A DNA stretch of 64,000 bases, taken from NCBI RefSeq assembly GCF_053078305.1, contig NZ_CP166879.1. The stretch is one strand, 5' to 3'. The translations under genes were made by a program, and so were the position numbers. Below, in pieces: positions 44,100-64,000 of the stretch. The notes under the pieces are model-generated. The model saw nothing but the letters and a program-made list of their open reading frames with translations. It did no database searches and was not told the origin of the DNA. Numbering within the stretch: position 1 is the first letter of the stretch; every line of letters begins with the position of its first letter.

Positions 44100-44507
44100 T
44101 CACCCCGCCCGATGATGACAGCAGCCGGAGAGATTTTCGATAATCGGGCAGTCGGCGCTGTCATCACCGGGGCAGGCATTCGCCAGCGCCAGTAGCTGGT
44201 TGCGCATGGATTGCAGTTCTTCGATATGCCGTTCGATCTCCGCCACCTTCTCCAGCGTACGACGTTTGACGTCGGCACTGTGACGCTGCGGGTCGTTAAA
44301 CAGATTCACCAGCTCGCCGCTCTCTTCCAGGTTAAAGCCCACCTGGCGCGCCTGGCGCAGTAAGGTCAATTCATTGAGATGCTGCTGCGTGTAGGTTCGA
44401 TAACCATTTTCGCTGCGCATCGGCGGCGTCACCAGCCCCTTCTCTTCATAGAAGCGAATGGCTTTGCTGGTCAGGCCGGTAATTTTTGCTACATCGCTAA
44501 TGTTCAT
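44100..44507 (-). CDS. cueR: Copper-responsive MerR-family regulator
   Basis: 135 aa with N-terminal MerR HTH and C-terminal metal-binding Cys pair (CPGDDSADC...CC). Confidence 0.95.

Positions 44508-64000: not shown

Follow-up and report, generated by a model that had tools for sequence, protein, structure and literature searches.

The siiEA/O-island 28 locus beside cueR in Escherichia coli: type I secretion genes and the distal part of a giant BapA-related adhesin

The stretch considered here, a 64,000-nucleotide window of contig NZ_CP166879.1 (RefSeq assembly GCF_053078305.1), belongs to an Escherichia coli chromosome; coordinates refer to window positions 1-64,000 unless another sequence is named. 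Its last part is occupied by four tightly packed minus-strand genes (Table 1): siiEA, which encodes a giant BapA-related adhesin, the genes of an ATP-binding cassette (ABC) exporter and of an HlyD-family adaptor, and the copper regulator gene cueR. This region very probably represents the distal three-quarters of the Escherichia siiEA/O-island 28 locus, a dedicated type I secretion system (T1SS) with a single giant substrate, of which cueR forms no conserved part. As an earlier sequence-only reading of this DNA had noted, the giant frame ran off the window: it comprised 5,385 sense codons, displayed no internal stop and was still open at position 63999 upon translation, which far exceeds the length expected by chance. 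The junctions also proved to be those claimed in that reading, namely TAG ATA ATG between adhesin and exporter genes (a gap of three nt), gcATGAac between exporter and adaptor genes (an ATGA overlap) and cgATGAac between hlyD and cueR, where the cueR start codon shares a 4-nt ATGA overlap with the hlyD stop codon. The three secretion genes had a G+C content of 57-64 %, against about 43-55 % in the flanks. CueR was 99-100 % identical to its K-12 and O157 counterparts, while HlyD was 99.5-99.7 % identical to the proteins of strain PapM-32-1 and of O157:H7.

Table 1. Coordinates of the siiEA/O-island 28 genes, of cueR and of the adhesin domains in the window
Feature	Coordinates	Strand	Size, evidence
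siiEA, 3' 16.2 kb; giant BapA-related adhesin	47842-64000	minus	open frame; RefSeq annotation of orthologues
Partial and 39 complete tandem immunoglobulin (Ig)-like repeats, Ca2+ type	52240-63996	minus	~100 aa each; motif spacing, autocorrelation, repeat profile
About seven more diverged Ig-like (Big_13) domains	50047-52164	minus	period ~106 aa / 318 nt; Pfam Big_13 x4, tandem repeats, weak repeat-profile matches
FG-GAP/VCBS repeats, predicted integrin-alpha-like Ca2+-binding beta-propeller	48913-49962	minus	Pfam FG-GAP_3 x3 (E 3e-9 to 3e-7)
RTX calcium-binding nonapeptide repeats, short block	48214-48552	minus	Pfam HemolysinCabind E 2e-4 and a weak second match
Uncleaved C-terminal type I secretion target domain	47854-48162	minus	TIGR03661 34.4 bits (cut-off 17.6)
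Type I secretion ABC permease/ATPase, LssB/LapB subfamily (hlyB28)	45676-47838	minus	720 aa; TIGR03375
HlyD-family type I secretion periplasmic adaptor, membrane fusion protein (hlyD28)	44504-45679	minus	391 aa; TIGR01843
Last ~96 nt of hlyD, kept upstream of cueR in K-12-type genomes	44508-44603	minus	alignment to K-12 ybaT-cueR spacer
cueR, MerR-family Cu(I)-responsive regulator	44100-44507	minus	135 aa; NCBIfam NF007590 308 bits (cut-off 244)

A megablast search of positions 44000-49000 against 5,426 complete E. coli genomes, in which presence was called when at least 80 % of the query was covered, located the locus in 957 of them. RefSeq features lying under these matches were a T1SS permease/ATPase, an HlyD family adaptor subunit, "siiEA: BapA-related adhesin SiiEA" and cueR. 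The full locus of PapM-32-1 consists of ybaT, a TolC-family gene, an intact siiEA of 6,925 aa, the ABC and HlyD genes and cueR, an order shared by O157:H7 and O145:H28, and the order found in the window (adhesin 3' end, ABC, HlyD, cueR and, further on, ybbJ) agreed with it. The adhesin DNA was collinear with PapM-32-1 siiEA over all 16,159 nt (95.9 % nucleotide identity), and because of this collinearity about 1,540 N-terminal codons and the TolC gene are expected just past the window. NCBIfam scans were judged by curated cut-offs and Pfam scans by E-value; the N-terminus of the PapM-32-1 orthologue reached 505 bits with NF047714 (adhesin_SiiEA), a 229-aa N-terminal signature with a cut-off of 425.

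The locus is therefore no discovery but the already named and characterized siiEA/O-island 28 locus, although the sequence-only reading had considered its E. coli version uncharacterized. The name siiEA, explained as "adhesin for cattle intestine colonization", was in use by the time of a 2011 genome comparison (PMC3256949), and the genes of O-island 28 were studied in O157:H7 EDL933 by Niu et al. (Gut Microbes, December 2025; PMC12758282) as tolC28 (z0608), rtxA28 (z0609), rtxB28 (z0615), hlyB28 (z0634) and hlyD28 (z0635). Deletion of the island or of any single gene decreased adherence to Caco-2 cells, pedestal formation and mouse colonization, and each gene is thus required for early attachment to epithelium; RstA bound the regulatory region of the island and activated its transcription, and Ca2+ raised both its expression and adherence. 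The phenotype was reproduced in further O157:H7 strains and in one O145:H28 strain (PMC12758282).

Both transport proteins of the window belonged to type I secretion families. The adaptor scored 328 bits with TIGR01843 (cut-off 208.65) and the exporter 838 bits with the LssB-type model TIGR03375 (cut-off 693), while the latter reached only 387 bits with the HlyB-type model TIGR01846 (cut-off 725.55). Judged by these models, the exporter is of the LssB/LapB subfamily and not of the type that exports RTX toxins, so that the label "HlyB-type" given in the sequence-only reading did not hold. In Pfam it displayed ABC_membrane, ABC_tran and a weak Peptidase_C39 match (E 0.029, residues 12-82); because of this weak match and the absence of cysteine from its first ~190 residues, the N-terminal C39-like domain is regarded as degenerate and non-catalytic. 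A TolC-like outer-membrane gene, which the same reading had suggested looking for, was found upstream of siiEA in the orthologous loci, and the PapM-32-1 protein scored 416 bits with TIGR01844 (cut-off 225). Family membership and the published genetics together show that the giant protein leaves the cell through the ABC exporter, its adaptor and the TolC-like channel, and that adherence is promoted by the system.

The in-window part of the adhesin is dominated by its tandem Ig-like repeats. Those of the main array displayed a D-D/N-I/V-I/V-N motif recurring every 99-101 aa and were grouped by six into a super-repeat of ~598 aa (1794-1800 nt), DNA repeat families within the array being 60-85 % identical. 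They matched NF033510 (Ca_tandemer, "Ca2+-stabilized repeat-containing adhesin") and NF012196 (Ig_like_ice), 20 such stretches being matched within 2,000 aa. Tandem Repeats Finder caught just the 318-nt array of the more diverged domains, the main periods being either over its limit or too diverged, and the main repeats were instead mapped by DNA repeat search, autocorrelation and repeat profile. In a sequence search of the PDB, the C-terminal Ig domains were similar to entry 2yn3 (E 5.5e-8), which we take to be the BIg50-52 fragment of Salmonella SiiE. The FG-GAP part was all-beta in an AlphaFold model of the C-terminal 736 aa (24 homologues; pLDDT, the predicted local distance difference test, 60-84 in this part). 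In Foldseek the model was best matched by FG-GAP propellers, namely those of CRTAC1 (9etn, E 3e-13), of integrin alpha chains and of the PVL lectin (2bwm), and the propeller is proposed as a candidate ligand-binding head. The single short RTX block (HemolysinCabind match at residues 1042-1076 of the adhesin segment) was similar to the RTX blocks of CyaA, its nonapeptide (GGxGxDxUx) repeats standing next to the uncleaved C-terminal secretion signal. The families encountered along the three secretion genes bear out the BapA/SiiE/LapA-type T1SS adhesin locus of the sequence-only reading.

It is this RTX block, together with the type I secretion signal, that could argue for a secreted RTX toxin or exoprotein instead of a cell-bound adhesin. 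Such was the original O157 annotation ("RTX family exoprotein"), and "RTX toxin" is still used in parts of PMC12758282. However, more than 85 % of the in-window protein consisted of tandem Ig-like repeats and RTX repeats were limited to one short block; Pfam and NCBIfam scans of the adhesin segments displayed no family connected with toxins, pore formation or acylation, and the locus had no annotated acyltransferase gene. The exporter is of the adhesin-type LssB subfamily, and O-island 28 mutants lose adherence, not cytotoxicity (PMC12758282). A toxin is therefore considered highly improbable.

The N-terminus, which lies past position 64000 in our strain, was read in orthologues. In PapM-32-1 it displayed a BapA prefix-like domain (BapA_N, residues 5-132, PF22783 E 8e-19; NF033677 69.5 bits, cut-off 35). 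Three strains shared a domain of ~95 aa, followed by the tetrapeptide TAAG (residues 97-100) and a G/A-rich stretch (130-155), and these fit the LapG motif [T/A/P]AA[G/V] and the layout of retention modules (bioRxiv 10.1101/198937). Searched against PDB sequences, the N-terminus of the orthologue gave no match. The LssB/LapB-type exporter and this N-terminus, with its TAAG and Gly/Ala-rich linker, are the reasons for proposing that the adhesin is retained at the cell surface.

A sequence of events may be proposed from the domain anatomy and from the models established for LapA, MpIBP and SiiE. The exporter would recognize the uncleaved C-terminal target domain and thread the ~6,900-aa protein out of the cell, C-terminus first. 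Outside, Ca2+ would fold the RTX block and stiffen the tandem Ig-like domains, about 45-65 in number, to form a stalk with a length of a few hundred nm, which would display the membrane-distal FG-GAP beta-propeller, probably the part that binds the ligand. The BapA-prefix domain at the N-terminus, with TAAG and Gly-rich linker following it, would stay lodged in the TolC-like pore like a plug and so hold the adhesin on the cell.

Relatives of this adhesin gene are not always intact. In two genomes RefSeq flags siiEA as a pseudogene because of an internal stop. In O157:H7 PV15-279 a tryptophan codon has become a stop at codon 1027 of 6,820 and the TolC gene is frameshifted (compared stretch 23843-44302); in O145:H28 RM12761 the stop is at codon 1241 of 6,922 (compared stretch 6958-27726). 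The two stops are independent. The genes published as rtxA28 and rtxB28 look like parts of a single gene broken in two, and siiEA was probably published as two "RTX" genes because of the O157 stop at codon 1027.

Several points weigh against the picture drawn so far. The equivalents of codons 1027 and 1241 lie beyond the window edge, N-terminal of the covered part; N-terminus, TolC gene and promoter are likewise off-window, so that the copy in this strain may be incomplete. Surface retention, a Ca2+-rigid stalk and ligand binding by the propeller are inferred properties. Overall confidence of the AlphaFold model was low (mean pLDDT 56), and the model was relied on solely to back the presence of an FG-GAP beta-propeller and for no finer detail. 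No LapG or LapD gene, partners which had been suggested in the sequence-only reading, was annotated within ~20 kb either side of the cueR-to-ABC segment in the two annotated genomes (PapM-32-1 and O157:H7), nor downstream of HlyD in Enterobacter sp. Ag1. The TAAG motif of the orthologues may thus be functionless, and regulated release of the adhesin is unsupported because of this lack of annotated partners. A LapG-type TAAG with neither gene annotated nearby hints at permanent anchoring or at release by another protease.

The interrupted alleles raise the question whether the adhesin gene considered here could be a decaying pseudogene as well, yielding an N-terminally truncated, released product at best or none at all. 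The two nearest EHEC (enterohaemorrhagic E. coli) lineages carry internal stops, the TolC gene of O157:H7 PV15-279 is frameshifted, the known stop positions are off-window and the housekeeping flank of the window (32268-40697) was nearest to O145:H28 genomes (99.4 % identity). On the other hand, every one of the in-window codons was open, the ABC and HlyD genes were full length and more than 99 % identical to intact orthologues, and positions 44000-49000 were closest to the genome with the intact 6,925-aa allele (PapM-32-1, 98.2 %, against 97.4 % for the EHEC copies). Similarly, the adhesin gene displayed 95.9 % identity to PapM-32-1 and 93.8-95.4 % to O157:H7, and the cueR-to-adhesin stretch 95.5 % to O145:H28. 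Adherence phenotypes have been obtained even with the O157 copy, interrupted as it is (PMC12758282). Decay of the present allele is hence considered unlikely, if by no means negligible. The allele was about one Ig domain longer than that of O157.

Among known systems, O-island 28 of O157:H7 shares with the window its chromosomal site between ybaT and cueR, gene order and junctions, and differs by the cut at codon 1027 where the window's frame was open throughout its covered part. BapA/BapBCD of Salmonella resembles the present locus in the BapA prefix-like domain (seen in orthologues), the tandem Ig-like repeats, the C-terminal type I signal and the gene order channel-adhesin-ABC-adaptor. Both features characteristic of the BapA family were thus encountered, the Ig-like repeats in the window and the prefix domain in the orthologue. 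A locus of Salmonella enterica subsp. arizonae, possibly bapABCD, displayed an adaptor 56 % and an ABC protein 48 % identical to those of the window, whereas nearer relatives of the transport genes were found in Enterobacter, Cedecea and Lelliottia (70-73 %). In contrast to BapA, SiiEA is far longer (~6,900 aa), its FG-GAP propeller precedes the RTX block, and NCBI assigns it to an "exception" family of its own, NF047714.

With the two-step adhesins LapA of Pseudomonas and MpIBP of Marinomonas, the system shares the LssB/LapB-type ABC protein, Ca_tandemer/Ig_like_ice repeats and, in orthologues, a putative retention module with TAAG and a Gly-rich linker. It differs in the above-mentioned lack of annotated genes for the LapG protease and the cyclic di-GMP receptor LapD, and its regulation shown so far is transcriptional, via RstA and Ca2+. 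Salmonella SiiE, encoded by Salmonella pathogenicity island 4, is also a giant Ca2+-binding Ig-repeat adhesin with a dedicated type I system, and the name siiEA derives from this resemblance. SiiEA is nevertheless not an orthologue of SiiE: it has a BapA-prefix N-terminus, an added propeller and another gene order. No SiiA/SiiB-like (MotAB-like) genes were present in the annotated orthologous loci, where the ybaT-cueR interval holds just channel, adhesin, ABC and adaptor.

The locus was absent from K-12, as the sequence-only reading had stated: in MG1655, glsA-ybaT is followed after a 124-nt spacer by cueR, which abuts ybbJ, and no secretion genes are present. Alignment of this spacer (compared stretch 4870-4993) revealed that the hlyD 3' end makes up the final ~96 nt of the spacer, near-identical except for a 1-nt deletion in an A-run. 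The remnant codes for the C-terminal end of HlyD, a sequence likewise conserved in Enterobacter (…LDYLLKP.NKA.EALRER). On the left, the break lay within the hairpin loop of the ybaT terminator. This hairpin was intact in locus-bearing strains (-16.3 kcal/mol, z = -5.0, followed by a T-rich tail), whereas that of K-12 had lost its 3' arm (-7.6 kcal/mol, z = +1.5). A 160-nt query across the K-12 junction was found nearly whole in 4,459 of the 5,426 complete genomes (82 %), which together with the 957 locus-bearing genomes make up almost all of them. In several RefSeq genomes a "hypothetical protein" was annotated under the K-12-type junction region.

As the K-12 spacer keeps the hlyD end fused to a truncated ybaT terminator, the locus is ancestral at this site and K-12 a deletion derivative; K-12-type strains share one deletion allele of ~25 kb, and the locus is not an O157 acquisition. 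The reverse, K-12 as the pre-insertion state, was rejected since its spacer encodes the conserved HlyD C-terminus. E. whittamii and one Escherichia sp. genome likewise carried the siiEA locus beside cueR. In E. coli SCPM-O-B-8794 the locus was partly degraded, just ABC residues 297-396 and HlyD residues 19-374 being detectable beside cueR, and deletion variants besides the K-12 type therefore exist.

Outside Escherichia, the adhesin-ABC-HlyD order was rather widespread. A scan with the HlyD protein of genomes taken at one per species returned 80 loci, and besides Escherichia at least 18 named genera had homologous loci. The order recurred, among others, in Enterobacter, Cedecea, Lelliottia, Pluralibacter, Trabulsiella, Rahnella, Erwinia, Rosenbergiella, Acinetobacter, Citrobacter and Buttiauxella, adaptors being 56-73 % identical. 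Measured between tblastn match ends, which are not mapped gene boundaries, the gaps in these homologues amounted to ~70-320 nt (mostly 100-200) between adhesin and ABC and up to ~200 nt (mostly 35-75) between ABC and HlyD; Escherichia loci are by contrast packed, with the 3-nt gap and the ATGA overlap already described. Among the 80 loci, cueR followed HlyD in Escherichia only, and it was not found within 6 kb of any of the ~77 loci outside this genus. The linkage of cueR was consequently rejected as a conserved feature of the system, and cueR is regarded as a positional passenger.

How cueR is driven at this position was considered separately. When 43900-45000 was scanned for promoters and terminators, the 3' end of hlyD gave no sigma-70-like site on the minus strand and the hlyD-cueR junction no terminator, a scan that leaves the cueR promoter question unsettled. 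The ATGA overlap, this lack of predicted signals and the intact ybaT terminator 25 kb upstream make read-through plausible. Where the locus is present, transcription of cueR probably continues from the secretion operon, and a weak promoter near the end of hlyD possibly contributes. If the two genome types have a promoter and ribosome-binding site close to cueR in common, these must lie in the last ~96 nt of hlyD.

The same features could suggest that cueR is a genuine operon member and that secretion and copper sensing are deliberately co-regulated, for instance with adhesin expression tied to CueR dosage. A 4-nt ATGA overlap is typical of translational coupling, it was kept in all locus-bearing Escherichia examined, and neither promoter nor terminator was predicted between the two genes. 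Yet none of the loci outside Escherichia had cueR nearby, 82 % of E. coli genomes have retained cueR while lacking the locus, and in K-12-type strains cueR works in its absence. In Salmonella, cueR is paired with copA in a copA-cueR divergon, without ybaST (PMC1526738), and the functional study of O-island 28 neither mentions nor needs cueR (PMC12758282). Such deliberate co-regulation is thus improbable, and cueR is best viewed as a passenger of its position.

A passenger may still be affected by its neighbors. In K-12, cueR is treated in the literature as the last gene of a ybaS-ybaT-ybbI operon (PMC1526738). It is tentatively proposed, as a rather doubtful possibility, that presence or absence of the locus rewires cueR, which would be an operon member under RstA and Ca2+ in the former case and the tail of a copper-induced glsA-ybaT transcript in the latter. 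If true, the deletion allele would provide positive autoregulation of CueR via the glsA-ybaT transcript, the 3' arm of the terminator being gone.

Further features were observed elsewhere in the window. A second small insert absent from K-12, where the stop codons of ybbJ and cueR abut, separated these two genes at 40875-43896. It contained a 120-aa open reading frame (ORF) on the minus strand, a gene for a YadA-like trimeric autotransporter (41586-43388, plus strand) and a lipoprotein gene (43474-43896, plus strand). A 369-nt tandem duplication (41901-42615, 1.9 copies, 94 % match) brings the YadA-like product to 600 aa in the window; in O157:H7 and in PapM-32-1 it has 338 aa, and in O145:H28 it has 436 aa. 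PADLOC and NCBIfam scans of the three genes returned coiled-coil noise only. At the edge of this insert, just downstream of ybbJ (40698-40875), alignment displayed palindromic units resembling repetitive extragenic palindromes/bacterial interspersed mosaic elements (REP/BIME). Positions 27624-31838 (minus strand) carried a gene for a 1,404-aa core protein of the RHS (rearrangement hot spot) type with a variable C-terminal tip, the end of which was overlapped by a 163-aa ORF (27152-27643), a usual toxin/immunity-like arrangement.

As a colonization factor of EHEC carried by about one sixth of sequenced E. coli, the siiEA locus deserves correct recognition in annotation. Its reading as ancestral at the site, with K-12 as a deletion derivative, runs counter to the framing of an "O-island" as horizontally acquired. 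Intact siiEA alleles, possibly including that of the window, should be better functional models than the O157:H7 pieces. The remaining interest lies in the interrupted EHEC alleles, in the orphan LapG-type site and in the deletion scar with its bearing on how cueR is driven: as the deletion altered the sequence upstream of cueR, it suggests the hypothesis that strains may differ in expression of their copper regulator.
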